This document shows positions 5,609 to 64,000 of a stretch of 64,000 bases of DNA, piece after piece. The notes beneath the pieces were generated by a model. It did no database searches, had not been told where the DNA came from, and saw only the letters and a list, made by a program, of their open reading frames with translations. The stretch is from positions 553,797 through 617,796 of the forward strand of contig CAZVXT010000001.1 in assembly GCA_964631145.1 (NCBI GenBank), read 5' to 3'. Origin of the DNA: an uncultured Candidatus Saccharibacteria bacterium. GTDB lineage: Bacteria; Patescibacteriota; Doudnabacteria; UBA920. Numbering within the stretch: the stretch's first letter is position 1; the number at the start of each line of letters is the position of its first letter. Both the position numbers and the translations under genes were made by a program.

Positions 5609-7070
5609 ATAGCCAAGGATGAGAGAATAGCTTGGCAGTTACAAAGAGTTTAAGTAGAGTTCTAGTTACAGTAATTGCACTAAACATAGAAATTAAGATA
5701 CCGATAGACAAAGTTACAGCAAAACCTTTAATTGATGGGGTACCAAATAAATATAAGATTATAGTTGTAATTAAACTCGATACATTTGAATCTCTAATAG
5801 ACATCCATGCTCTAGCAAATCCATCCTCAATAGCCTTTGGAACGTCTTTGCCAGCACGCAATTCTTCTTTCATACGTTCGAAGATCAAAATATTAGCGTC
5901 TACTGCCATACCGACTGACAAAATGAATCCTGCAATACCAGCCAATGTTAAGGTTACGGGAGCTAATGCACCATTGATTAACATCAAAACCAAATAACTA
6001 AGCAGTGCCATTAAGCCAAAATACCAGCTCACTGTAATTCCTAATAAGAAGAATGCGCCAACTAAGACTACTGCAGTTACCGAAATACCAATTTTAAAGA
6101 TCGCAATAGACATTAATACATACAAAAGCAATGCGGCAACAGCAAGTAATCCTGGAAATCTATAGAAAAAGACCATAAAGAGGGCAACCAATAACAAGCC
6201 TATCAATCCAGCAATAATAGATTTTTGGATTGACTCTTTACCTAAAGTTGCACCAACATTTTGCTGGGAGATTAATTTAATCGGTACTGGCAATGCACCA
6301 GAATTTAAGCGGGTAGCAAATAATTTTGCTTCTTCAGGAGTAAAGTTTCCAGAAACAATAGCTTCGCCATTAGTAATTGCAGTTTGTACAGTTGGAGCAC
6401 TAATTATTTGACCATCCAAAATAATTGCAATTGGCTTTCCAATATTTGCTTTTGTTAAATCAGAAAATAATTGGGTACCTTCATCATCAAATTGCAATTT
6501 TACTACAATTTCTGAAGCTAATTGGCTTTTGCCAGAACTTTGCGCTTCTGCAATTGCCTTCTTCAAATTTTTACCTGATAATTTTGTAGGTATCCAGGCA
6601 GACAAAGGATCTATAACAACTTTTCCATCCGGACCAACTGTTGCATCCTGTGGCTTATTAGGGTCACCTTGAGTTCTAAATTCTAATAAAGGAGTTTGCC
6701 CTATTTGATCAATGGCTTTGTTAATATCAGTAATACCTGGAAGTTCTACAACAATCTGGTCAGTACCTTGTGTTTGAACTACTGGTTCGGATACTCCAAA
6801 ACTATTAACACGACGCTCAACAGTATCTCGAGCCGCTTGCAAGGCTTCACGCTTATCCCCTTCAGCAATATCTTTAAAATCAGCTTGATATACAAGATGT
6901 GCGCCACCTTGCAAATCCAAGCCTAAATGTATACCATATTGCTTGTTAAAATTGATTTTTAGCTTTCTTAAGTCAATTTTACTGCCGCCTGGCCAAACAA
7001 TCCATGCAGTAGCCAGCCCTAAAAGGACTATAAAGACAAAAAGTACTACTCTTTTGTAAAATGCTTTCAT
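5580..7070 (-). CDS. secD: Protein translocase subunit SecD
   Basis: LGLDLQGG motif, periplasmic domain plus C-terminal TM bundle; overlaps secF start. Confidence 0.85.
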   Translation of the reverse strand: MKAFYKRVVLFVFIVLLGLATAWIVWPGGSKIDLRKLKINFNKQYGIHLGLDLQGGAHLVYQADFKDIAEGDKREALQAARDTVERRVNSFGVSEPVVQTQGTDQIVVELPGITDINKAIDQIGQTPLLEFRTQGDPNKPQDATVGPDGKVVIDPLSAWIPTKLSGKNLKKAIAEAQSSGKSQLASEIVVKLQFDDEGTQLFSDLTKANIGKPIAIILDGQIISAPTVQTAITNGEAIVSGNFTPEEAKLFATRLNSGALPVPIKLISQQNVGATLGKESIQKSIIAGLIGLLLVALFMVFFYRFPGLLAVAALLLYVLMSIAIFKIGISVTAVVLVGAFFLLGITVSWYFGLMALLSYLVLMLINGALAPVTLTLAGIAGFILSVGMAVDANILIFERMKEELRAGKDVPKAIEDGFARAWMSIRDSNVSSLITTIILYLFGTPSIKGFAVTLSIGILISMFSAITVTRTLLKLFVTAKLFSHPWLFGIKIKDNK

Positions 7071-7107: not shown

Positions 7108-9669
7108 TTATTTTTGTTTAGCAAAGCCCTTAAAATAGCTATCTACTAATTCTGAATCTCGCTTAATCCAAGCCAAATTTATTCTAATCTTTTCGATAGT
7201 CTGAGCAACTGATTGCTTTTCTGTTTTTAAATATGGTTTAGCGTAATTTTGAAACTCCTTTAGTAGCTCATTAGTGCTAAAATCTCTCGCTCCTTCTATG
7301 ATATAGCCCATTAACTTGCCACCCATAAACATTTCTCTTAGTTGTTTATCTCTTGATTTTATTTCTTGCCACATCAAATGTGAAGTTTTTGAAATTAACA
7401 TCCCATGGATAATAGCAATTGGCAGGTCTTGAGGTCTAACTTGTCCAGAAAAAATAAACTCCAGTACTTGCTTGTATTCTTTTTCTCCTTTAGTTCTTAG
7501 CATTGCCGCTACAAGTTGATTTCGTTCTTCTTGAAGAGTAGCTTTTTTGTATTTATCAAATAGCGTGCTTAAAACTTTATTGTCACTGTAACTTGCTACA
7601 GCTAAAATTGCAGTTTTATGATTCCTATCAATACTTTTATTTTTTTCATACAAACTAAATTGTTTTTTTGCATATTGTTCGACTTCTTTCAGCCCAGCCA
7701 AGCCCGCATTACTAATAGCCAAAGATCTTAAAAGCTTTTGACTATCTGTATCATTCTTTTGGGAATTATATCCAAGCCTTGTTAAGACATTTGCGTACAA
7801 TTGTTTTTTCCAATTTAGAAAACTTTCGTAATATTTCTTATTTGAGGTAAAGAATACTCTTTCAATTTGTGCTAAATTCCCTGATATTTCTGCCCATACA
7901 ATATAACTATCTTCTGTCGCAGATATTTGGTTTACCACTTCCAAATATACGTCAGTTTGCACATATCCAGAAATCGCTAATAAGTACAAATTTCTAATTA
8001 AGGCTAATCTATCGTTAGAACCAATCTGCTTATTTTGCATCGCGCTTACTAATAAAGCAAGATATTTAATTGGGTAGTTTGTTATATAAAAACTTTGTTC
8101 ATTTGGATTGAGCTTAATAAATTTATAATTATTCTCGATATGCAAATGTGATATAGCCTTATTTGCTAAAATCATCCCACTCTGTTTATCATGATCAATT
8201 AACGCCTGCACCGGCACTTGCCATAAAGTTTTATCTTCATTCTTTTGAAGTGTAAAACGCTTTTGTGATAACTCTAACCCCTTTTTAGCATCAGTTATAG
8301 TAATAACTGGGTAACCTTTATCCTGTGTCCAAGCTTTTACTAAAGCAGAAATATTCTTATTAGACACCTTATCAAAAGCAGCCCACAAATCTTCCGAACT
8401 CGTATTTCCATAAGAATGCTTTTTTAAATAAATACGAAGTGCGTCCCGAAAATTATCAGCTCCGATATATCCCGAAATCATGCGCAAAATACTCGCTCCT
8501 TTACTATAAGAAATACCGTCAAATATTTCGCTAATCTCATGCGAGTGCTTAACTTCCACTTCTATTGGATGAGTCGAGAGCAAAGCATCTTCCTTAAGTG
8601 CATAAGACTGTTCTGATAATACAAACTTTGTCCAGAATCTCCACTCTGGAAATAACTCATCTACAACCAAATACGCCATATAGCAGGCGAAGCTTTCATT
8701 TAGCCACAAATGCGTCCACCACTTCATTGTGACCAAATTTCCAAACCACTGATGAACTAATTCGTGAGCAATAACTTCTGCAACTCGCTGTCTATTAATC
8801 AAAGATGTGTGCTTTTCATCTACCAATAAAGCAGTCTCTCTAAAAGTAATAGCGCCCCAATTTTCCATAGCGCCAGCTGCAAAATCTGGAATTGCTAATA
8901 AATCTAAGGTTTTAAGAGGATACTTAATACCAAAATAATTTTCTAAAAACTCTAAGCTTCTCTTTGCCGTCTCTAAACTAAAGGCAGCCAAATTGCTTTT
9001 GCCAGGTGTTGTATGAACTTTAATGACTGTGCCATTTTTAGTCTTTGTTTTAATATGATCTAACTCTCCAATTACGTATGCTAATAAATAGCTCGACATT
9101 TTTGGCGTTGATTCAAAATGCACAATCTTTTTATCCTTGCCTAATTTTTCAATTTTCTTTTCTTGAGTATTAGAAACAACTTGTAAATTTTTTGGAACGA
9201 CAATAGACAAATCGAAAATGGCTTTATGACTAGGCTCATCAAAACATGGAAAAGCCCGTCTTGCATCTGTGGCTTCAAATTGAGTGGTAGCCAAATGCTT
9301 TTCTTTTTTGTCATGAGTATACTTACTTCGATAAAACCCGTGGAGTTTATCATTAATACTTCCTGTAAACTCTATACATAAATTACCTTTTCCAAGTAAG
9401 CTAGTCGCAAATGTCAAAATAACTGTTTCAGAATACTTGTCATACGAAACATCTTTGCAATCTATTTGTTTTTTACCAAACTTAAAAACAGCCGAATTGA
9501 TTTCTATGTCGATACAATGCAAAACTATTTCTTTTGTTTTCTTTTTTATATCTATGTTAATAGCTTCAGATCCACTAAATGTAAAATTTTCTAAATCTGG
9601 GACAATTTGAAGAGTATATCTAATTGGCACCACATGATCTGGCAGCCGGTGATTGTTGGATTGTTTCAT
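7108..9669 (-). CDS. pepN: Aminopeptidase N (M1 family zinc metallopeptidase)
   Basis: GAMEN exopeptidase motif (AAGAMENWG) and HELVHQWFG…E zinc-binding HEXXH-E motif. Confidence 0.85.
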   Translation of the reverse strand: MKQSNNHRLPDHVVPIRYTLQIVPDLENFTFSGSEAINIDIKKKTKEIVLHCIDIEINSAVFKFGKKQIDCKDVSYDKYSETVILTFATSLLGKGNLCIEFTGSINDKLHGFYRSKYTHDKKEKHLATTQFEATDARRAFPCFDEPSHKAIFDLSIVVPKNLQVVSNTQEKKIEKLGKDKKIVHFESTPKMSSYLLAYVIGELDHIKTKTKNGTVIKVHTTPGKSNLAAFSLETAKRSLEFLENYFGIKYPLKTLDLLAIPDFAAGAMENWGAITFRETALLVDEKHTSLINRQRVAEVIAHELVHQWFGNLVTMKWWTHLWLNESFACYMAYLVVDELFPEWRFWTKFVLSEQSYALKEDALLSTHPIEVEVKHSHEISEIFDGISYSKGASILRMISGYIGADNFRDALRIYLKKHSYGNTSSEDLWAAFDKVSNKNISALVKAWTQDKGYPVITITDAKKGLELSQKRFTLQKNEDKTLWQVPVQALIDHDKQSGMILANKAISHLHIENNYKFIKLNPNEQSFYITNYPIKYLALLVSAMQNKQIGSNDRLALIRNLYLLAISGYVQTDVYLEVVNQISATEDSYIVWAEISGNLAQIERVFFTSNKKYYESFLNWKKQLYANVLTRLGYNSQKNDTDSQKLLRSLAISNAGLAGLKEVEQYAKKQFSLYEKNKSIDRNHKTAILAVASYSDNKVLSTLFDKYKKATLQEERNQLVAAMLRTKGEKEYKQVLEFIFSGQVRPQDLPIAIIHGMLISKTSHLMWQEIKSRDKQLREMFMGGKLMGYIIEGARDFSTNELLKEFQNYAKPYLKTEKQSVAQTIEKIRINLAWIKRDSELVDSYFKGFAKQK

Positions 9670-20084: not shown

Positions 20085-21203
20085 TTAAGATTTATATAAA
20101 CTATTTTTAATAACCTCTACCGTTTTGTCCCAAGAAAATTTAGAAGCTTGCGCTAAACCTTTCATACTTAATTGCTCTCGCAACTGCTTATCGTTTAATA
20201 CTTCATGCAATACTTTTGCAATGTGAGCCGAATTATATGGATCTACTAACAATGCAGACTCTTCGCACACCTCTGGCAAGCTAGAAACATTTGATGTCAC
20301 AACTGGTGTCCCGACTGCCATAGCTTCTAAAACAGGCAAGCCAAAACCTTCAAATATACTTGGCCACACAAAAACTTTTGCCATTTTTATTAACGCAGGC
20401 TTATCTGATTCTGGAACATAACCAAGCAAATGAATTTGTTTGTTTTTTGGACTATTGTTTATCTGAGAGATAACATCATTATAATTCCAGCCAAACTTTC
20501 CCGCAATAACCAAATGCTCATTACCTTGGAGCATGTTAAATGCCTCGATAAGTTTTATTAAGTTTTTGCGTGGCTCTATCGTAGCTACAAATAATAAATA
20601 TTCTTGAGGGAGTAAATATTTATTGCGCACACCACGCATCACGGATTGATCAATATTCGGGCGATATCTATCATGATCAACGCCCAAATGAGCAACTGTA
20701 ATTTTATTGGGATCTACGCCACAGATTTCGACAATTGATTTTTTTGTATATTCGGAAACAGCAATAATTTGATCTGCTCTTTTGCAAAGTTTTTTTATGT
20801 TTACCAGTCTATGCCAAATACGAGATTTTAAAGAATAAAATTCTGGCATTAATAATGGAGACAGGTCATGAATAACCAAAGTTAATTTGGTAGTGCTTCT
20901 TAGAGCAACCAAATTTGGATTCGGCATAAAAACATGATTAGTTTCGCCTGCCAAACTTTCGATTTTTGGAATTCCAAAGATTTTGATTAGAAGATTTAAA
21001 ATTCTATTTGGAATTCGGGTTTGTTTATACTGTGCATTTATAAACTGAAATTGCTCAAAAGTTTTTAAACCAAATCCATTATAAAATAATTTATAAGTGT
21101 TTTGATGATCAGTGGATATCAAGCGTTCTATAACGTTAGTAGTAAAAAATTCCACTCCGCTAAACTCTAAGTTATTTAAACTACGCAAATCTATGGTTAT
21201 CAT
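20085..21203 (-). CDS. Glycosyltransferase family 4
   Basis: EGFGLPVLEAMAVGTPVVTSN GT4 signature. Confidence 0.75.
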   Translation of the reverse strand: MITIDLRSLNNLEFSGVEFFTTNVIERLISTDHQNTYKLFYNGFGLKTFEQFQFINAQYKQTRIPNRILNLLIKIFGIPKIESLAGETNHVFMPNPNLVALRSTTKLTLVIHDLSPLLMPEFYSLKSRIWHRLVNIKKLCKRADQIIAVSEYTKKSIVEICGVDPNKITVAHLGVDHDRYRPNIDQSVMRGVRNKYLLPQEYLLFVATIEPRKNLIKLIEAFNMLQGNEHLVIAGKFGWNYNDVISQINNSPKNKQIHLLGYVPESDKPALIKMAKVFVWPSIFEGFGLPVLEAMAVGTPVVTSNVSSLPEVCEESALLVDPYNSAHIAKVLHEVLNDKQLREQLSMKGLAQASKFSWDKTVEVIKNSLYKS

Positions 21204-24527: not shown

Positions 24528-24695
24528 ATGACAGAAGAGCTTGAGATAACAAAAATAATAGCAAGTAATAACCATTACAAACATTTTCATGCGAAAGATA
24601 GTTCTTATACACTAAAAGATCGAGTAGATGACTTCATAGAAGAAGCAAAAAAAGGTTATAAAATAATTATTACTTCGCACGCTTTTTTTTGCTGA
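24528..24695 (+). CDS. Small hypothetical protein (55 aa), below ORF-track threshold
   Basis: AAGGAGAG RBS then ATG at 24528; MTEELEITKIIASNNHYKHF… ends TGA 24693-24695. Confidence 0.3.
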   Translation: MTEELEITKIIASNNHYKHFHAKDSSYTLKDRVDDFIEEAKKGYKIIITSHAFFC

Positions 24696-34659: not shown

Positions 34660-34986
34660 ATGAAAACTATTATCCACATCGACGATGATGAAACTTGGAG
34701 AAATTGGGTTGCTTATATTTTAGATAAAGCTGGGTATAAGCTATCATCTTTTAATAACATTAAAGATGCTAATGATTTTATATCTCAAAATGATATTTCT
34801 TTGGTGATCACAGATGGCAACATTGAGTCTGATAATGATGGTTATATTTTGGCAAAAGACTTGTATGAAAGTAAAAATAATGTTTTGCTTTTATCTGGTA
34901 AACACTACGAAAATATACCATTAATAAAAAAACTAGGATTTAATGAAAATAGTTTTTTGCAAATAGTTAAAAACATAATAGAATGA
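34660..34986 (+). CDS. Single-domain response-regulator receiver (CheY-like), orphan
   Basis: GGAGG RBS; IIHIDDDE acidic pocket, LVITDGNIESDNDG phospho-Asp region, LLLSGK. Confidence 0.45.
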   Translation: MKTIIHIDDDETWRNWVAYILDKAGYKLSSFNNIKDANDFISQNDISLVITDGNIESDNDGYILAKDLYESKNNVLLLSGKHYENIPLIKKLGFNENSFLQIVKNIIE

Positions 34987-37776: not shown

Positions 37777-37977
37777 TTAATGTGCGGCTCTCAACTTTGC
37801 TGCTTTTTCAACAACCTTTCTTTGATCTCTGTTTGCTTCCTTTACCACCTTTTCTATGACTTTTTTCTTATAAGACGATGAGGCATCATGAGAGAACCTA
37901 GAAAATTTGCTTTGCTTTATTTTATTTACCTTACCGCTAGTACCAAATATTTTATTTAAAAAATCCATCATATTCAT
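37777..37977 (-). CDS. Small basic protein (66 aa), translationally coupled to zeta-like kinase
   Basis: ATGA overlap with upstream gene; K/R-rich helical sequence. Confidence 0.4.
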   Translation of the reverse strand: MNMMDFLNKIFGTSGKVNKIKQSKFSRFSHDASSSYKKKVIEKVVKEANRDQRKVVEKAAKLRAAH

Positions 37978-38716: not shown

Positions 38717-38790
38717 TGGCAGGGGCTGTAGGAATCGAACCTACGCAAATGGTTTTGGAGACCATTGTACTACCATTATACGAAGCCCCC
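38717..38790 (-). tRNA. tRNA-Trp (anticodon CCA)
   Basis: Cloverleaf: GGGGGCT acceptor, anticodon loop CTCCAAA, T-arm GTAGGTTCGATTCCTAC, CCA encoded. Confidence 0.85.
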
Positions 38791-56632: not shown

Positions 56633-57148
56633 TTATTTTTGAGCAACGGCATTAAGCACATTGATCAAACCACGAATGTTTCCAGCAAGAACATTTACGA
56701 AGCCAGAAACAGGAGCATTGATTGTACCAACGAGTTTTGCTCGTAGTTCGTCTTTGCTTGGAAGATCAGCCAAAGCCATCATCTGTGTACTATCTGCAAA
56801 TTTACCATCAACAACACCGCTCAAAATATTAATAGTTTTAATATCTTTGGAGATGTTTTTGATTATACGTGCAGGAGCTACCTCGTCTTGCTCTGAAACA
56901 GATAAAATCACAGGTAATTTATAATCTAATTCAGAAACTTGAATACCTTTTGCTTCAAAAGCTTTTTTGATCAAAGGAATTTTATAAACTTTTGCCTTTA
57001 CCCCTTCGCTACCCAAAGCACGACGAAGCTTATCCATTTCGACTACTGTAGTACCCCGGTATTCCGCTAACACTATAGATTTTGCAGATTCCAAACGAGA
57101 TGTTAACTCTTGGAAGTCTTGTTCTTTTTGTTGTCTTGTTTTTGCCAT
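56633..57148 (-). CDS. rplJ: 50S ribosomal protein L10
   Basis: MAKTRQQKEQDFQELTSRLESAKSIVLAEYRGTTVVEMDKLRR. Confidence 0.85.
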   Translation of the reverse strand: MAKTRQQKEQDFQELTSRLESAKSIVLAEYRGTTVVEMDKLRRALGSEGVKAKVYKIPLIKKAFEAKGIQVSELDYKLPVILSVSEQDEVAPARIIKNISKDIKTINILSGVVDGKFADSTQMMALADLPSKDELRAKLVGTINAPVSGFVNVLAGNIRGLINVLNAVAQK

Positions 57149-57210
57149 ATATTTCTTTCACTCTATAAAATACAGAGTATAATATCCGACCTTTTAACTG
57201 CATATCCGAA

Positions 57211-57234
57211 AATAAAAAACTCGGTTTCCCGAGC
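57211..57234 (-). promoter_or_regulatory. Terminator-like hairpin in rplJ leader (candidate L10 autoregulatory attenuator)
   Basis: On minus strand GCTCGG-GAAA-CCGAG followed by UUUUUUAUUUU, ~65 nt upstream of rplJ start, with no minus-strand gene ending there. Confidence 0.4.
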
Positions 57235-57369
57235 CAAATTATAATTACACTTTCTTTAAAAGGTGTAAAATATAATGTTCCTCGGTGGGCTTCTAACAAA
57301 TTTGATAGAATTTAAAGCCGTTTGGCCACCAACTGTCTTTGGATATTTAGTTAATAGTATTATACTACA

Positions 57370-57398
57370 TTGACTAAATTTGTCAAAACTGCTAAATT
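57370..57398 (+). promoter_or_regulatory. Sigma-70-type promoter with overlapping palindrome
   Basis: TTGACT-17 nt-TAAATT; palindrome TTGAC-TAAATTT-GTCAA overlaps -35. Confidence 0.4.
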
Positions 57399-57430
57399 AG
57401 CAAAAGATTTATTAGGGGGTATCTATACAT

Positions 57431-57763
57431 ATGGAAGGTGAAATACTGCTCCAACCTGAAGGCTCTGGGGTGCAATTAACTACTAGAAATTTATTTTTTA
57501 GTGCAGACTACATAATTAAAGGTTTTTGCTTTGAAAACCAAGACCATCACATGATTCTATGCTTTTTAAGCAAACTTGCTGGGAGAAAAGCTATAAAAAA
57601 ATTATTAGAACATGGGGTGATTAACGAATCTTTTGCTATAAAATTTGAAGAATATATTAAAAATTCAAATATTTCTGAATCTGAAAATGTTTATGATGAT
57701 ATACCATTTTATTGGGATAAAAAAAATTTAGTCCCCGAACAAAGATCAGAGTCTGTGCATTAA
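57431..57763 (+). CDS. Hypothetical protein
   Basis: GGGGG RBS; 110 aa. Confidence 0.45.
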   Translation: MEGEILLQPEGSGVQLTTRNLFFSADYIIKGFCFENQDHHMILCFLSKLAGRKAIKKLLEHGVINESFAIKFEEYIKNSNISESENVYDDIPFYWDKKNLVPEQRSESVH

Positions 57764-57774
57764 AATTATAAAAA

Positions 57775-57811
57775 TTTAAAAGCGACGAAATTTCGTCGCT
57801 TTATTTTTATA
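57775..57811. terminator. Bidirectional intrinsic terminator
   Basis: agcgacg-aaattt-cgtcgct hairpin plus T-run. Confidence 0.65.
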
Positions 57812-57815
57812 ACAA

Positions 57816-58295
57816 TTATTTACCCACCCAAGGATTACCATCATCGACACCACTATAAACACCAGAGGCTTTATTATTACGATCTATAACTTCTTGCTTT
57901 GCTTGCTTTGCGATTCTTTCCATATCCTCATAATCTAAAACTGGAAAATTACTCATTTTTTGAGCTGCCTCCCAAGCCAGGTTGAAGCCAACTTTCCAAT
58001 CTGGATTGTTTTGAGTAAAGCTCTCTTCTTTTAAAGCTTCTATTAAATCTTCTTTTACTCGCTCTATTCTATCTTCGGATACCTCATTATGATTTTGAGA
58101 AAGTGAGGATCTAAGTGCTTCGGAGTTTATAGCTAAAGCTGGGTTGATATCTTTTGCTGCTTGAGCGTAGTTATCTACTGCTTCTTTAGACCAAGCCTCG
58201 GACATTTCCTTTTCTTCTACTGTTCCCTCTTGACTCATTTGGTGCAAGTCTTCTATATCTGATCTTGCCCCATTAAATTTATCGAATTCACTCAT
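57816..58295 (-). CDS. Acidic hypothetical protein
   Basis: 159 aa, strongly acidic, helical. Confidence 0.45.
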   Translation of the reverse strand: MSEFDKFNGARSDIEDLHQMSQEGTVEEKEMSEAWSKEAVDNYAQAAKDINPALAINSEALRSSLSQNHNEVSEDRIERVKEDLIEALKEESFTQNNPDWKVGFNLAWEAAQKMSNFPVLDYEDMERIAKQAKQEVIDRNNKASGVYSGVDDGNPWVGK

Positions 58296-58394
58296 AATTT
58301 ATATATTAATTACTTTTATTATAACTTTTTTATAAAAATGGTTTTCCACAGCTTAATTAAAAAGAGCAATATTCCTATTGCTCTATTTTGGACT

Positions 58395-58679
58395 TCAAAG
58401 ATCAAGGCTTTGAAAGTCATGATTTGGTTTTGTGCTTTGCCACAAGATTGTGATCAAAGCCGCAACGCTCAACAACCCGAAAAGGATCAAAGTCAAAACT
58501 CCGGCTTGAGTTGCAAATTCTTCACCAAATCTTTGCATTGCGAGCAATGTCATAATGTCTTGAATTGGCGATGGAATTGTTTGTCCAGGACCAGCAATGA
58601 TGTGCTGAATCCATGCCACCAGAAAATTGGCAGCAAACAATGCAATGCTCAAAATTTTCCAATCAAAAATTTCTTTCAT
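58395..58679 (-). CDS. Hypothetical membrane protein
   Basis: AGGAGG RBS (rc of cctcct at 58686); two TM helices; preferred over overlapping + ORF. Confidence 0.4.
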   Translation of the reverse strand: MKEIFDWKILSIALFAANFLVAWIQHIIAGPGQTIPSPIQDIMTLLAMQRFGEEFATQAGVLTLILFGLLSVAALITILWQSTKPNHDFQSLDL

Positions 58680-58749
58680 TTTAACCTCCTATTTAAAAAT
58701 TTTAATACGATAATAAAGTTTAGGCAAATAAATTAACAGGTAATTTAAT

Positions 58750-58914
58750 TTACCATCTCTGACGACCAACTTTTCGTTGTTCGCGAAATTTTAATGTTTT
58801 ATTTTTATCATGAACCCGTCGCTCTCGACGCTTTTGCCTAGATTCGTTTTTAGATGCAACTGCATCAAAATTTGGATCCAAAGCTTTTATTTCGTTAGAG
58901 ACAGATAGCATCAT
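58750..58914 (-). CDS. rpsU: 30S ribosomal protein S21-like
   Basis: MLSVSNEIKALDPNFDAVASK…RQKRRERR…KTLKFREQRKVGRQRW aligns with S21 pattern; longer ORF to 58962 would abut the tRNA-like element. Confidence 0.35.
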   Translation of the reverse strand: MMLSVSNEIKALDPNFDAVASKNESRQKRRERRVHDKNKTLKFREQRKVGRQRW

Positions 58915-58965
58915 ATGTTCGCACCAGCCCTTGCTGATTAAGCTTTTTCTTATTTTTTTCATAAG

Positions 58966-59035
58966 GCACTAACAGGAATTGAACCTGTTATTCTAGATTA
59001 CTAGTCTAGCATATGTCCATTTGTACTTTAGCGCC
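58966..59035 (-). tRNA. tRNA-like element with AGU anticodon (possible tRNA-Thr(AGU) or pseudo-tRNA)
   Basis: Acceptor GGCGCTA/TAGTGCC, 3-bp D-stem, perfect anticodon stem CTAGA/TCTAG with loop CUAGUAA, T-arm ACAGG-TTCAATT-CCTGT; no CCA encoded. Confidence 0.35.
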
Positions 59036-59192
59036 AATATTCAATTTTGGAAGCACTACTTTTTGTAATACTCTCAAAAAAGAAGTGGTGTTGTATGCAG
59101 TTCTAAAATCTTTTCTCTAATTTTAGATCCATACCGGCACCACAGCCGAACTTGTTTTGGGACTTACACCCCCGGATCAGTTTCCGGATGCA

Positions 59193-59546
59193 TTACCAAC
59201 ATCTCGTATAAAACACAGTGTTGGTTGCCGTTGGTTGCTCGAAAGACATTTTGCTTTCCCACCACGAACCAAACGCCTTGCAGTAGCCAAGTTTTTTGAG
59301 ACGCTTATCACGCTCAGCAACTACAGCTTCTGATCTACGCTTGGCAGTGGTATAAAGCTTACCTTCCGAGTCCGTGCACTCACCGTTAGAATCAAATCTA
59401 CCAGGTGCAGGGCAATCTTCAACTCCGCTGCGAAACTCCTCCCACAAATCAGCCACTGCTTTTTGGGCAGCAAAATGATTTGCAAAAGTATTTCCAACGA
59501 CAACAATAGCGGCAAAAACAACGATAACAGCAATAATAGTTTTCAT
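59193..59546 (-). CDS. Secreted Cys-rich hypothetical protein
   Basis: GGAGG RBS; signal peptide MKTIIAVIVVFAAIVVVGNTFA; six Cys; locally elevated G+C. Confidence 0.45.
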   Translation of the reverse strand: MKTIIAVIVVFAAIVVVGNTFANHFAAQKAVADLWEEFRSGVEDCPAPGRFDSNGECTDSEGKLYTTAKRRSEAVVAERDKRLKKLGYCKAFGSWWESKMSFEQPTATNTVFYTRCW

Positions 59547-59586
59547 AATTTTATTTTCCTCTTTTTTATTTTTTATTTTAGACCAA

Positions 59587-59742
59587 TGGAGATGGCGGGA
59601 ATCGAACCCGCATCCAAGAATTTTAATACCTATTTATGCAGATTCAACTAAGTTTGCAGTCCTTAGTAACGCAAGTCCTTCTCGTGGTTGGTTATCCTTA
59701 CTTTCTACCCGGCTAAAATCCCTGTCGAAGCCTGTCACCCCC
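59587..59742 (-). ncRNA. ssrA: tmRNA-like gene (ssrA), unusually short (~156 nt), CCA not encoded
   Basis: 5' GGGGGUGACAGGCUUCGACAGGGAUUU matches the tmRNA 5' consensus; 3' GCGGGUUCGAUUCCCGCCAUCUCCA forms T-arm plus acceptor; G3-U70 Ala identity pair present; candidate tag ORF GCA AAC UUA GUU GAA UCU GCA UAA. Confidence 0.5.
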
Positions 59743-59789
59743 TTACCAATTTCCGAAATTTCTTTATAAAGCAATTCCGAAAAAAAGTG

Positions 59790-59822
59790 CGAAGCTAAAC
59801 AGCTTCGCAAGATATTAACCGT
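59790..59822 (-). terminator. Intrinsic terminator downstream of HicB-like gene
   Basis: On minus strand gcgaagc-uguuua-gcuucgc followed by U7. Confidence 0.6.
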
Positions 59823-59826
59823 GATG

Positions 59827-60525
59827 TTAATACCTGATTCTAAACTCTGCCCTTAAACCTAAGATTTGATTGAGATAATCTAAAGGTTCTACATCTACTG
59901 GCTTATCATAGACCAGCACAAACTGATCACTACGAACCATGGATGCTGGCTTGTTTTTTACCACAGCCATCATCCCTTTTTGCCTCTGACGACAAACACT
60001 ACAATCCCCATAACATCCATAAACTACAGTCATCACCATGTCATCAAGCACAGCAATCTGTCTAGAATTTTCCCATCCTGGGACAGTGATTAACCCAATC
60101 ACATTCCAGTCTTTTGAGTATGCCGCTGTTTGCAAGGAAATTTGCTTATCCCAAGCCTTCCTTTCAAGTTTTAGATTATACATTTCCCGTTTAAAATTAA
60201 TATTACGGACCAAAGATTGCAATGCCAGTTCTTCACTTCTACCAATTCCTCTACTTTGTTCAAACTCCAAACACTTTGCTAAATAAATTTTTCCCGAAGG
60301 CAAATCGTGAGTATTATAAGTAACAGTTAATTCTTCTGCACTATAAAGTCTATCTGGCATATCAGCAAAATATTCAGCATCTATAAATTCTTCAACTTTA
60401 TTTTGTAAATCTTTTTGAGCGTCTTCAATATTTTTACCTAATCCAAAAACGGTTGGAAACTGTTTGCATGTAGAGATAAATCCTTCTGAGGTTTTGGTGT
60501 TTCTTACGGTTCAAATTGTTTTCAT
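59827..60525 (-). pseudogene. HicB-like N-terminal domain protein interrupted by an in-frame TGA at codon 5 (ORF track reports only 59827..60360)
   Basis: GGAGG RBS 5 nt before ATG 60523-60525; reading MKTI*TVRNTKTSEGFISTCKQFPTVFGLGKNIEDAQKDLQNKVEEFIDAEYFAD continues in frame into MPDRLY…; the 55 codons between are stop-free and resemble a HicB/UPF0150 fold. Confidence 0.45.
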
Positions 60526-60581
60526 AATGCCTCCAAAAATTTGTAATTTTTATTTTTCCAAACAAACGAATATTCACTTGC
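60519..60581 (-). repeat. Promoter/5'-leader repeat copy A (shared with 61873..61940)
   Basis: 35-nt identical core ttttatttttccaaacaaacgaatattcacttgct plus shared ttcataat…cctcca SD region. Confidence 0.6.
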
Positions 60582-60620
60582 TGGGAAAAATTCCCAAAGT
60601 CACGTGCTTTGGGTTAATGA

Positions 60621-60962
60621 CTAATCATCATAGTCATAGTTTAAGTAAGTGTAATTTTCATCGCAATCCGAGACAGGAAAACCAAAATCTCTTAACTTTT
60701 GCTCATCCATTATTGGATAATCAAAAAGTTCAGCAATTGGAAATATCCTTGGGGTTACTACGTCCATCTCTTGCACATGTAATAACTCTTGATGAGAAGT
60801 GCTGGTGCAATAACAACCACACTTTTCTGTATCATCCCAAGTTAGATTATCAGCAACAAAGCTAACAATCGACTTTCTAATAGATTCCAGACTTTCATCT
60901 GGAGCTTCGACAGTATGATAGTTATTTTGACCATACTCCTTTAATACAATCATTAGTTTCAT
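60621..60962 (-). CDS. Hypothetical protein
   Basis: AGGAGGG RBS before ATG at 60962 (MKLMIVLKEYGQ…); preferred over overlapping + ORF. Confidence 0.4.
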   Translation of the reverse strand: MKLMIVLKEYGQNNYHTVEAPDESLESIRKSIVSFVADNLTWDDTEKCGCYCTSTSHQELLHVQEMDVVTPRIFPIAELFDYPIMDEQKLRDFGFPVSDCDENYTYLNYDYDD

Positions 60963-61122
60963 AGCCCTCCTATATAACTTTTTTCTGTTACTTGCTAATT
61001 CGCCGGTCAGCATATAAATTAGTCAAGTGTCCTAAAAGTTTTTTCCCTCTTTTTTAATCGACGTAAACACATCGACTAAAAAAGAGGTGCGAAGTTTTTT
61101 AGGCTTCGCATAAGTTTTCAAG

Positions 61123-61332: not shown

Positions 61333-61469
61333 AATACCTCCACTACTTTCTTCTGTCTCTCGCTTACACACCAAAAGGCATTATGCAAGTCGAGTGTCCG
61401 GAAAGAACCTAATTACAAGTATAATTACTTGGACCATAGTTTAGTTTTGGTATTATGAACACCTTTTGT

Positions 61470-61878: not shown

Positions 61879-61940
61879 AATTTCCTCCAGATTTTTTATT
61901 TAAAATTTTATTTTTCCAAACAAACGAATATTCACTTGCT
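61873..61940 (-). repeat. Promoter/5'-leader repeat copy B
   Basis: Same 35-nt core as 60547..60581 plus SD region. Confidence 0.6.
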
Positions 61941-62232
61941 TAGAAAAATGGCAAATCAAGTTTGCCGAGGTTTTTTGTCCCATTTACAATAGCGTGGAAC
62001 AAGTCTTTGGATAGTTCGACCATGCGCGCGGTAGCGAACAGTCCTAGTATCACATTTCGGACAACCGCAGTGTTCGTCTTCCAACTTGGCTGCGGCAACT
62101 TTAGGTGCGACATAAATGGTTATTTTTATGTTCATCATTTAAAGTATATTGCGGTCTCGCCTTGGTTTATAAACTATCGGCTAAATAATTTTTCTTTCCC
62201 CAAGATCCCCGCACTGTTTTTTTGAAACTTGC

Positions 62233-62478
62233 TTAGGCAGCAGCAACGGTTACTTTCTTCGCAGGTTTTCGTTTGAACTCTTGTCGCTTTTTATGAAGCT
62301 TCATAAGAGAATCATAACGATCACCCGCTCGATACCGCCGCGCGTCGGCATGGCTAACGATATTAGCTGCAGTTGCCGCGTTTAATTGAGCATCGATGCC
62401 AGCAAACTTCAATTTTGGTCTATGTTGAACCATATAAGCTAATTCAACTTCAACCAATTTTTCGATTTTGGTTATCAT
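62233..62478 (-). CDS. Hypothetical basic protein (81 aa)
   Basis: AGGAGG RBS; locally elevated G+C; 5'-UTR hairpin ccacc/ggtgg precedes the RBS. Confidence 0.4.
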   Translation of the reverse strand: MITKIEKLVEVELAYMVQHRPKLKFAGIDAQLNAATAANIVSHADARRYRAGDRYDSLMKLHKKRQEFKRKPAKKVTVAAA

Positions 62479-63059
62479 TATCTTTTCCTCCTATATAACC
62501 CACCAGCCACGGTGGTTTTATTTATTTTTATTTTCTTTTTCGAGATGACGAATTTACACTCATCCCCTCAAAAAAGGAGCCCAACTTAAAGTTGAGCATA
62601 AGTATGTGTTAGATGCTTTCCACAGCACCCTGCTGTAATTGGAGTTACAGCTTTCGCTTCCACTGCAGAGGAACCGCATTTTGTCTGACCTTCTCAGAAG
62701 ATGTCTTGCATAGACAATCCCAGCATCAATTTTTATCAAAATGATGACTTACACAAAATAGATTTTGACTAGACCTAGGAGTATATATATAGTTCATTAC
62801 CTTAGGGCAATAAAAGGCATTCTAGTATGCCACCTGACTTCCGAAGAACGAAGTCATTGGTCTAAGATATATACTTAATCAGGGTTATTTTGCAAAATTG
62901 CAAAAGTGACACGCAACCCTCCTAAATATTTTTAGCGTTCTATTTTAGATCGCCTATTTTAATTTTCAAATTTTGAAAACTAGAATAGACGGATGATTTA
63001 AGTTTGAAGTTTAAATCACCTCAATAAAATTTGTCTTGCGACATAAATTACCTCCTTTG

Positions 63060-63760
63060 ATAAAAATTTCCTATACGCTAGGATTACTTAGCGCCGGCGC
63101 GACCCAAGCCGGTAATCTGCTGCCCCTCCCATGGGGGTCGATATGGTCTTTATCGACATAGTCTTTTGGGTCTTGGGTAGACCGTTAGGTTTGCAGCCCG
63201 CTTTCGCGAGGAGCTTGTCCCCTAACCGGGCAAGCTCTTGGCGGCTTAAGCCGCTCAAGTCTGTCATATTTTTCAATTTTTTCTGTTCAGCTAAGTTTGT
63301 AACTCAACTGAACAGTTTGGGTGCTGAGCTGGTGGCTCATTGTTAACACCGCAGTCTGAAAATTTTCTTGTCACCTATTGTAACGAACTTTTTACAAAGC
63401 TTTGTCCAATAGGATCTCGCCATCACCGTTCTTGCGCGAGACTTTACGGATTTACGGTTGACCCAGATCTTGGGTTGTCAGTTACTCGTTTTCAGACGAA
63501 CCGGCAAAAATAAAGATTACTTTATCCCCGCCGGCCCGTCTGCAAAGTTGTAAGCTGGTGCTTAAACTAGCAAGCTAGTCTAAACATCTCTACAGTCGGG
63601 CGGACATATTAAAAAGCTGTAATCTTTGAATTAGATAACAACCTTTACAAGACCAACTCGCTGTGTGGCAAGTATTTATATGATTATTAGCCCCGTAATA
63701 GAGGCACTCCTGCCTACCAGCGATGTTCCTTTAATTTCTTAATGGAAACTAGCCGTAAAA
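63060..63760. other. ORF-free, G+C-enriched, stem-loop-dense region (candidate large structured RNA of unknown class)
   Basis: No ORF above 71 aa in any frame over ~1.5 kb (62480-64000); many perfect 5-8 bp hairpins such as CTGTTCAG…CTGAACAG, GAGCTTG…CAAGCTC, GCGGCttaaGCCGC, TCTCGC…GCGAGA. Confidence 0.25.
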
Positions 63761-64000
63761 GATTGTTATTTACTTTTCAAAATTTCAGCTTACAAAAGTA
63801 TTATACACGAATAATTATTTTTGTCAAGAAGTTTTAACAAAATTTTGTATATTTTTCTTTAAACATTGTTTTTATTAAGTATTTTGTAATAAATTATTGA
63901 TATTTTATATAAACATAATAAGATAAATCATGTAATTATTTGTTTTGGATAAAAATAAAAAAGCATCAATTGCTTTTGTAGAGTAAATCTACTTTGCAGT

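Follow-up and report, generated by a model that had tools for sequence, protein, structure and literature searches.

A premature in-frame TGA at codon 5 of an orphan gene with a HicB-like N-terminal segment in a CPR bacterium

The gene described here lies within a 64-kb stretch of DNA, hereafter the window, which forms part of a genome of 653,896 bp with a GC content of about 33%. The window is bacterial and not viral, since it houses SecA, SecD/F, Mur ligases, RF1 with PrmC, the ribosomal proteins L10/L12, LexA, an M1 peptidase, RNase P RNA, and tRNAs. Open reading frames under code 11 span around 86% of its length. Every one of the core proteins tested is a singleton at 90% identity, and the nearest relatives of the RF1, at about 77% identity, carry the label Patescibacteria or Doudnabacteria. 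From these protein comparisons we infer that the host is a CPR bacterium without a close sequenced relative.

Read directly on the minus strand, the sequence runs TTTTTGGAGGCATT and then ATG AAA ACA ATT TGA ACC GTA AGA and onward, such that a start codon with a Shine-Dalgarno (SD) sequence is followed by three further sense codons and then by an in-frame stop. Beyond this TGA, 50 sense codons join ATG 60360 in frame, and from there 177 codons lead to a TAA at 59829-59827; no ATG, GTG, or TTG occurs in this reading frame between the TGA and ATG 60360. Much of this arrangement had been recognized in the original prediction. That codon 5 after the ATG at 60523-60525 is TGA is borne out by the sequence and by a Logan assembly, and the frame does stay open, from 60510 to 60361, into the annotated MPDRLY start. 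The prediction had also placed a GGAGG 5 nt from the ATG and counted 55 open codons after the stop; the GGAGG and the ATG are both present with a spacer of 4 nt, and the open codons number 50, as they do in the peptide given with the prediction itself. The features of the locus are collected in Table 1.

Table 1. Features of the TGA-interrupted gene, its transcription unit, and the tRNA relevant to its decoding (window positions)
Feature	Position	Strand	Remarks
Copy 2 of the 47-nt element, 94% identical	61903..61949	(-)	Heads the neighbouring four-gene unit
Terminator-like hairpin with T-run	60593..60613	(-)	Closes the upstream four-gene unit
Promoter/operator-like element, copy 1 of a 47-nt direct repeat	60545..60591	(-)	Palindrome CAAnnGAATATTCnnTTG; directly upstream of SD and ATG
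Shine-Dalgarno GGAGG	60530..60534	(-)	4-nt spacer CATT to ATG
Probable native start ATG	60523..60525	(-)	Met-Lys-Thr-Ile, then TGA
In-frame TGA, codon 5	60511..60513	(-)	Opposite conserved Phe/Cys/Tyr in strand 1 of CPR HicB antitoxins
50 open codons, HicB/UPF0150-like N-terminal domain (TVRNTKTSEGFISTCKQFPTVFGLGKNIEDAQKDLQNKVEEFIDAEYFAD)	60361..60510	(-)	Gene-like codon usage
177-aa ORF from Met56 (MPDRLY...), stop included	59827..60360	(-)	Exact product in NCBI and Logan protein sets
Conserved C-terminal domain of about 95 aa with CX3CX2C motif (GCYGDCSVC)	59839..60114	(-)	Stand-alone 97-aa homologues
Terminator-like hairpin with T-run	59788..59809	(-)	Closes this single-gene unit
tRNA-Trp(CCA)	38717..38790	(-)	C9, U11:A24 pair, normal 5-bp anticodon stem

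The TGA at 60511-60513 is real. In the Logan assembly of run SRR12712853, all 278 of the 278 aligned bases are identical to the window, the TGA included, and the Logan contig that bears the TGA is reported for two samples. A sequencing error, which was among the options raised originally, would imply a genuine sense codon, for example TGG, at this site, and a single-base difference would be sufficient to account for it. However, the site is not a homopolymer, and because an independent assembly is identical through the TGA, an error of assembly or polishing is very unlikely. The Logan contigs break at about 60553-60577 and at 61935, which is attributable to the copies of the 47-nt repeat that lie there.

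This repeat is informative about where translation of the gene begins. A hairpin with a T-run also lies ahead of its second copy, and behind that copy come an A/T spacer, GGAGG, and ATGAAA; the two copies probably represent the shared promoter/operator of two tandem transcription units. As the whole cassette of terminator, 47-nt element, SD, and ATGAAA is duplicated at the neighbouring unit, ATG 60525 is probably the native start of the gene. Initiation at Met56 is plausible since most genes in the window lack an SD: one is present in only 19 of the 87 ORFs, and SecA, SecD, RF1, and the Mur ligases are all without. The observation in the original prediction that MPDRLY has no SD thus carries little weight. 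More generally, most core genes of the window have A/T-rich, SD-less starts, and a perfect AGGAGG is found in a subset of mostly small hypothetical genes. The 130-aa ORF at 60621-61013 (-) is probably a 113-aa gene that starts from ATG 60962 behind an AGGAGG, and only the 113-aa product is on record.

The segment that lies between the TGA and Met56 has the character of coding sequence. At 33% GC, the chance of encountering 50 open codons is about 0.006. The codon-usage log-odds of the 50-codon segment, taken in frame, amounts to 0.44 per codon, where real genes have a mean of 0.35 and off-frame windows a mean of -0.74; the value exceeds those of 77% of genuine in-frame 50-codon windows and of all off-frame windows. 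The segment also bears a likeness to the HicB family. An hmmsearch with a profile built from 28 CPR HicB proteins matches residues 9-45 with E=1.9e-5, and this is the sole match among 1,224 six-frame segments of the window, while hhalign with a profile of 28 such proteins aligns residues 10-49 with 77% probability and E=2e-5. The Pfam model PF21748 (UPF0150) gives E=0.022 and 15.1 bits, below its cutoff of 27.3. The proposed HicB/UPF0150 likeness is therefore upheld at moderate strength only, with a unique profile match by HMMER and a sub-threshold Pfam score.

When genome contigs were scanned, a single relative emerged, a hicB-hicA pair on the Saccharibacteria MAG contig CAYRXD010000067.1, whose 70-aa HicB is 40% identical to residues 10-49 over 40 aa. 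This HicB is a member of a large CPR family whose proteins are 72 aa long and are named HicB antitoxins by several sources. The first residues of the interrupted gene, M-K-T-I-stop-T-V-R-N-T-K, align without gaps to M-T-Y-K-F-T-T-I-I-T-K of the family, in which the residue opposite the TGA is mostly Phe, with Cys in the closest members (MKCTT) and Tyr in a single one. The TGA consequently occupies the place of a conserved sense codon, just as had been suggested. Structure prediction by AlphaFold from the single sequence returned a pLDDT of 33; a mixed alignment raised the C-terminal half to 74-87 but left the HicB-like part under 50. A possible second HicB-like repeat at residues 56-115 gives a faint signal only (i-Evalue 2.2; BLASTP E=0.59) and is not claimed here. 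Together, the open frame and its codon usage, the family match, the position of the TGA, and the promoter architecture argue that the 50-codon segment is a coding-like and HicB-like part of the gene.

The same evidence bears on a quite different view of the locus, in which MKTI-stop would be a designed leader peptide, the gene would always have been translated from Met56, and the 50 codons would constitute a 5' untranslated region. The product on record does start at Met56, and SD-less starts are the norm in this genome. Such an untranslated region would, however, have gene-like codon usage in precisely the frame of the downstream gene and would match HicB, with the residues ahead of it aligning to the family N-terminus across the TGA. 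Moreover, in bacterial reinitiation the 150 nt to the next start is too far for coupling. A mini-ORF of this kind is highly improbable.

The N-terminal 50 residues share with the CPR HicB antitoxins (72 aa; PF24113/PF21748 UPF0150-like) a succession of strand, strand-Cys, GK(N/T)IE(D/E)AQK.L, and helix, and the N-terminal length is the same. In the window, however, the domain is interrupted by a stop, its Pfam scores fall under the gathering threshold, and it is fused to some 175 further residues that include an unrelated C-terminal CX3CX2C domain, and a HicA gene is neither adjacent to it nor found elsewhere in the window. A phmmer search with the HicA of the hicB-hicA locus against the 1,224 six-frame segments of the 64-kb window returned nothing below E=3, so that no HicA-like partner is found within 64 kb. 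HicAB antitoxins are recognized by a small size or by an RHH/HTH tail, and the conceptual protein here is 232 aa long. Without a HicA partner, without a DNA-binding tail, and with sub-threshold profile scores, the gene appears to fall outside the HicAB antitoxins despite its HicB-like N-terminus. The neighbouring ORFs have no significant Pfam match (all E>=0.009, below cutoff) and no PADLOC match, and a defence or toxin partner next door was rejected on the basis of these scans.

The conserved part of the protein is its C-terminal domain, of which independent 97-aa versions are encoded in the 943-kb NCBI genome CP064996.1 and by a short contig of the Logan set. The domain has no Pfam match, and Foldseek against the PDB gave a best E of 0.18, with no fold match. 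An orthologue of the whole gene with a sense codon at the TGA position was not found: a word-indexed search of 5.8 billion proteins returned only the gene's own 177-aa product, a full HMMER search of 1.8 billion representatives contributed nothing beyond the two 97-aa C-terminal homologues, the scan of genome contigs gave only the unrelated hicBA pair, and scans of metagenome and viral contigs for the gene gave nothing.

Some neighbours of the gene recur beside both stand-alone homologues. In CP064996.1, a conserved non-coding element precedes the 97-aa gene, after which come the gene for an 81-aa 'ELAYMV' protein and a short tmRNA, an order that parallels the one in the window; on the Logan contig, a homologue of the 117-aa ORF at window 59193-59546 lies behind the 97-aa gene. 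This recurrence points to a small-gene neighbourhood that is conserved next to tmRNA. By comparison with the stand-alone homologues, the HicB-like domain is a lineage-specific N-terminal addition, and its loss need not, for that reason, kill the gene. Two of the neighbours are themselves orphans. One is the 117-aa Cys-containing protein, which has an N-terminal hydrophobic stretch (window 59193-59546 (-); locus L003 651-1052), and the other is the 81-aa 'VELAYMV' protein (window 62233-62478 (-); 7184-7429 in the CP064996.1 excerpt L006).

In this window, TGA is a stop codon and the standard code holds. The 32 long genes, which together comprise 12,153 codons, contain no in-frame TGA as against 125 TGG, and TGA terminates a gene at each of two ATGA stop/start overlaps (21200-21203 and 37974-37977). 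A genome-wide TGA-sense code had been considered unlikely from the outset, and for the window these observations exclude it. A foreign element with code 4 or 25 was also considered, and when the region from 57 to 64 kb was translated with TGA as sense, no other TGA-split gene came to light.

Selenocysteine, or a lineage-wide reassignment of TGA as in code 4 or 25, would make the codon a sense codon. Some encouragement for such a reading is provided by the closest HicB relatives, which have Cys opposite the TGA, and by the reading of TGA as Gly in some CPR lineages, namely Gracilibacteria and Absconditabacteria. Most HicB members, however, have Phe and not Cys at the aligned position, and neither a hairpin after the UGA nor a SECIS or tRNA-Sec match was found. 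Reassignment is contradicted by the counts and ATGA overlaps just described and by RF1 relatives of the Patescibacteria/Doudnabacteria type, a group that, to our knowledge, is not known to be recoded. Both versions are largely refuted, and we regard them as exceedingly improbable. In the literature, no paper was found that ties Saccharibacteria or Patescibacteria to UGA recoding.

The signals that usually accompany programmed recoding are likewise absent from the site. Over 116 nt around and after the TGA, the minimum free energy is -11.8 kcal/mol (z=+1.38), and 183 of 200 shuffled sequences fold at least as well, so that no SECIS-like hairpin beyond that of shuffled sequence is seen. Rfam searches of 57000-61000 at E<=1 gave no match at the TGA region, and no tRNA-Sec was found within the 64-kb window. 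A +1 frameshift would give UUU GAA CCG UAA, meeting a stop three codons on, and a -1 frameshift would enter a 47-aa ORF (60434-60577) that ends at 60434; neither rejoins the ORF, and both were rejected. In having an early in-frame UGA shortly downstream of an SD-like sequence, the gene is reminiscent of prfB, where RF2 is made by a +1 frameshift. It differs from prfB in that the codon before the stop is AUU and not CUU, that neither shifted frame rejoins the ORF, and that the protein is not a release factor. With no SECIS, no Rfam match, and stops in both shifted frames, nothing positive speaks for the programmed recoding that had been put forward as an option.

Of the three options in the original prediction, a nonsense mutation is the best supported, and a recent nonsense mutation at codon 5 is, on balance, our favoured reading of the locus, held with somewhat more confidence than doubt. 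Under this reading, an ancestral single-gene unit would have encoded a protein of about 232 aa, in which a HicB/UPF0150-like first domain would be followed by a second region with a long helix at its end and then by the C-terminal CX3CX2C domain. A point mutation would then have converted codon 5 into TGA. The ancestral codon would most likely have been TGG (Trp) or TGT/TGC (Cys), from each of which TGA is a one-step change. With TGA being a stop in this organism, initiation at the strong SD and ATG 60525 would yield no more than a tetrapeptide. The event would be a recent one, as no further damage is seen in the 50 codons downstream of the stop. Translation from the internal ATG 60360 may still supply the conserved C-terminal part, given that most genes here start without an SD.

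The gene would in effect be N-terminally truncated, or else a young pseudogene, and this is the best explanation of the available features. Like ordinary nonsense pseudogenes and N-truncated genes, it has one premature stop, a frame that is otherwise intact, and a database product that starts at the next ATG; it is unusual among them in having no orthologue to give the ancestral codon and in being undamaged in its remainder. We would class the stop as a premature stop codon of the ordinary kind. The intact strong SD, frame, and codon usage would, however, fit ongoing use of the full-length frame through readthrough just as well.

Readthrough of this type would be mediated by the tRNA-Trp(CCA), which is the sole near-cognate UGA decoder in the window, where RF1, accompanied by PrmC, is the only release factor present. 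If the tRNA were to read the TGA as Trp occasionally, with a frequency in the region of a percent, a small amount of full-length HicB-like protein would still be made, and the stop would be either tolerated or a strong down-regulator. The C9 and the U11:A24 pair of the tRNA correspond to the A9C and G24A (Hirsh) states, both of which promote UGA readthrough in E. coli tRNA-Trp (PMC13092985). A precedent is available in Bacillus subtilis, which is described, in the passage of PMC2704378 that cites Lovett 1991, as decoding UGA as Trp at low efficiency. Tryptophan would also be a conservative fit at a position that is Phe, Tyr, or Cys in the family, and the SD, frame, and codon usage are all intact.

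Nonetheless, the natural bacterial tRNA-Trp genes classified in PMC13092985 (2,414/3,438 with 4-bp anticodon stem) commonly carry A9C and/or G24A, also in bacteria that use TGA as a normal stop, and because the variants are so widespread, C9/A24 is not specific evidence for readthrough here. No stimulatory structure or context is apparent at the TGA, no other in-frame TGA occurs among the 12,153 codons, and there is no sign that the full-length protein is needed. A leaky UGA is accordingly regarded as unlikely.

The usage of TGA as a stop has some bearing on this leaky decoding. TGA is a rare stop in the window, ending 8 of the 77 ORFs of at least 70 aa, and the four clearly real TGA-ending genes (21200, 36786, 37974, and 55035, all (-)) each have a second stop within 0-1 codons, compared with 6 of 61 TAA-ending genes. 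These counts would favour a leaky UGA that is backed up by tandem stops, but the signal is weak because two of the four cases are simply ATGA overlaps. The idea of backup stops was further downgraded by the likely real TGA-ending gene at 34660-34986, which has a strong SD and no second stop close by; the count leaves out a small TGA-ending candidate at 24528-24695.

A more far-reaching version would hold that UGA decoding is ambiguous in this organism, and that the C9/A24 tRNA-Trp makes the codon-5 TGA a throttle and not a knockout of the HicB-like protein. We consider this quite unlikely. Were it true, the lineage would be at an early stage of stop-to-Trp reassignment, with its rare TGA stops backed by tandem stops. 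The finding would gain in importance if the genome as a whole avoided TGA, carried backup stops, and had an RF2 that was weak or missing; UGA decoding that is ambiguous, in a CPR lineage not among the known code-25 groups, would then have a natural reporter in this site.

If the favoured explanation of a recent nonsense mutation is right, the finding in itself matters little, as it amounts to a premature stop in an orphan gene. It is of some value for annotation, in that the 177-aa product on record would be the remnant of a longer, HicB-like-fused gene. The surroundings of the gene are more interesting than the stop, and include a tmRNA of only about 155 nt, a conserved RNA-like element, and shared leader motifs.

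The tmRNA, which is very short, lies directly downstream of the gene at 59584-59742 (-), where 159 nt match Rfam RF00023 with 60.9 bits. Its tRNA-like ends are intact, 88 nt are found where the model has around 300, and ARAGORN misses the gene. A possible tag frame reads GCA AAC TTA GTT GAA TCT GCA TAA (ANLVESA). A counterpart of 154 nt is found in CP064996.1 (11737-11890 (+) in excerpt L006), scoring 66 bits and about 72% identical, from which it follows that the miniature form of tmRNA is conserved.

An ORF-poor stretch of about 1.2 kb occupies 62560-63800 and contains no ORF of at least 90 aa even with TGA as sense. It is headed by a predicted near-consensus promoter, TTGACA-17-TATAAT. The first 350 nt or so (window 63490-63842 (-)) are conserved in CP064996.1 (5272-5641 (+) in the same excerpt; nhmmer E=1e-23), where they likewise lie ahead of a member of this gene family. 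Neither genome gave an Rfam match to this element at E<=0.01, the best in the window having E=0.49, and its conservation suggests that it is possibly an undescribed structured RNA of Patescibacteria.

A leader of about 60 nt, CTTTyCGGACACTyGAC...GGyG...GCrAG.GACAGAAGAAAGT, occurs in the window at 60963-61030 (-) and at about 61335-61400 (-), and in the excerpt of CP064996.1 at 5925-6000 (+). It precedes the SD and ATG of two small orphans in the window and of the stand-alone 97-aa gene in CP064996.1, and could be a promoter or a cis-regulatory RNA. Finally, a tRNA-like gene at 58964-59035 (-) scores 48 bits with Rfam and is missed by ARAGORN. From the sequence of the anticodon loop, CUAGUAA, its anticodon would be AGU (Thr), an unusual one, and two further tRNA-Thr genes in the window carry the anticodons TGT and GGT.
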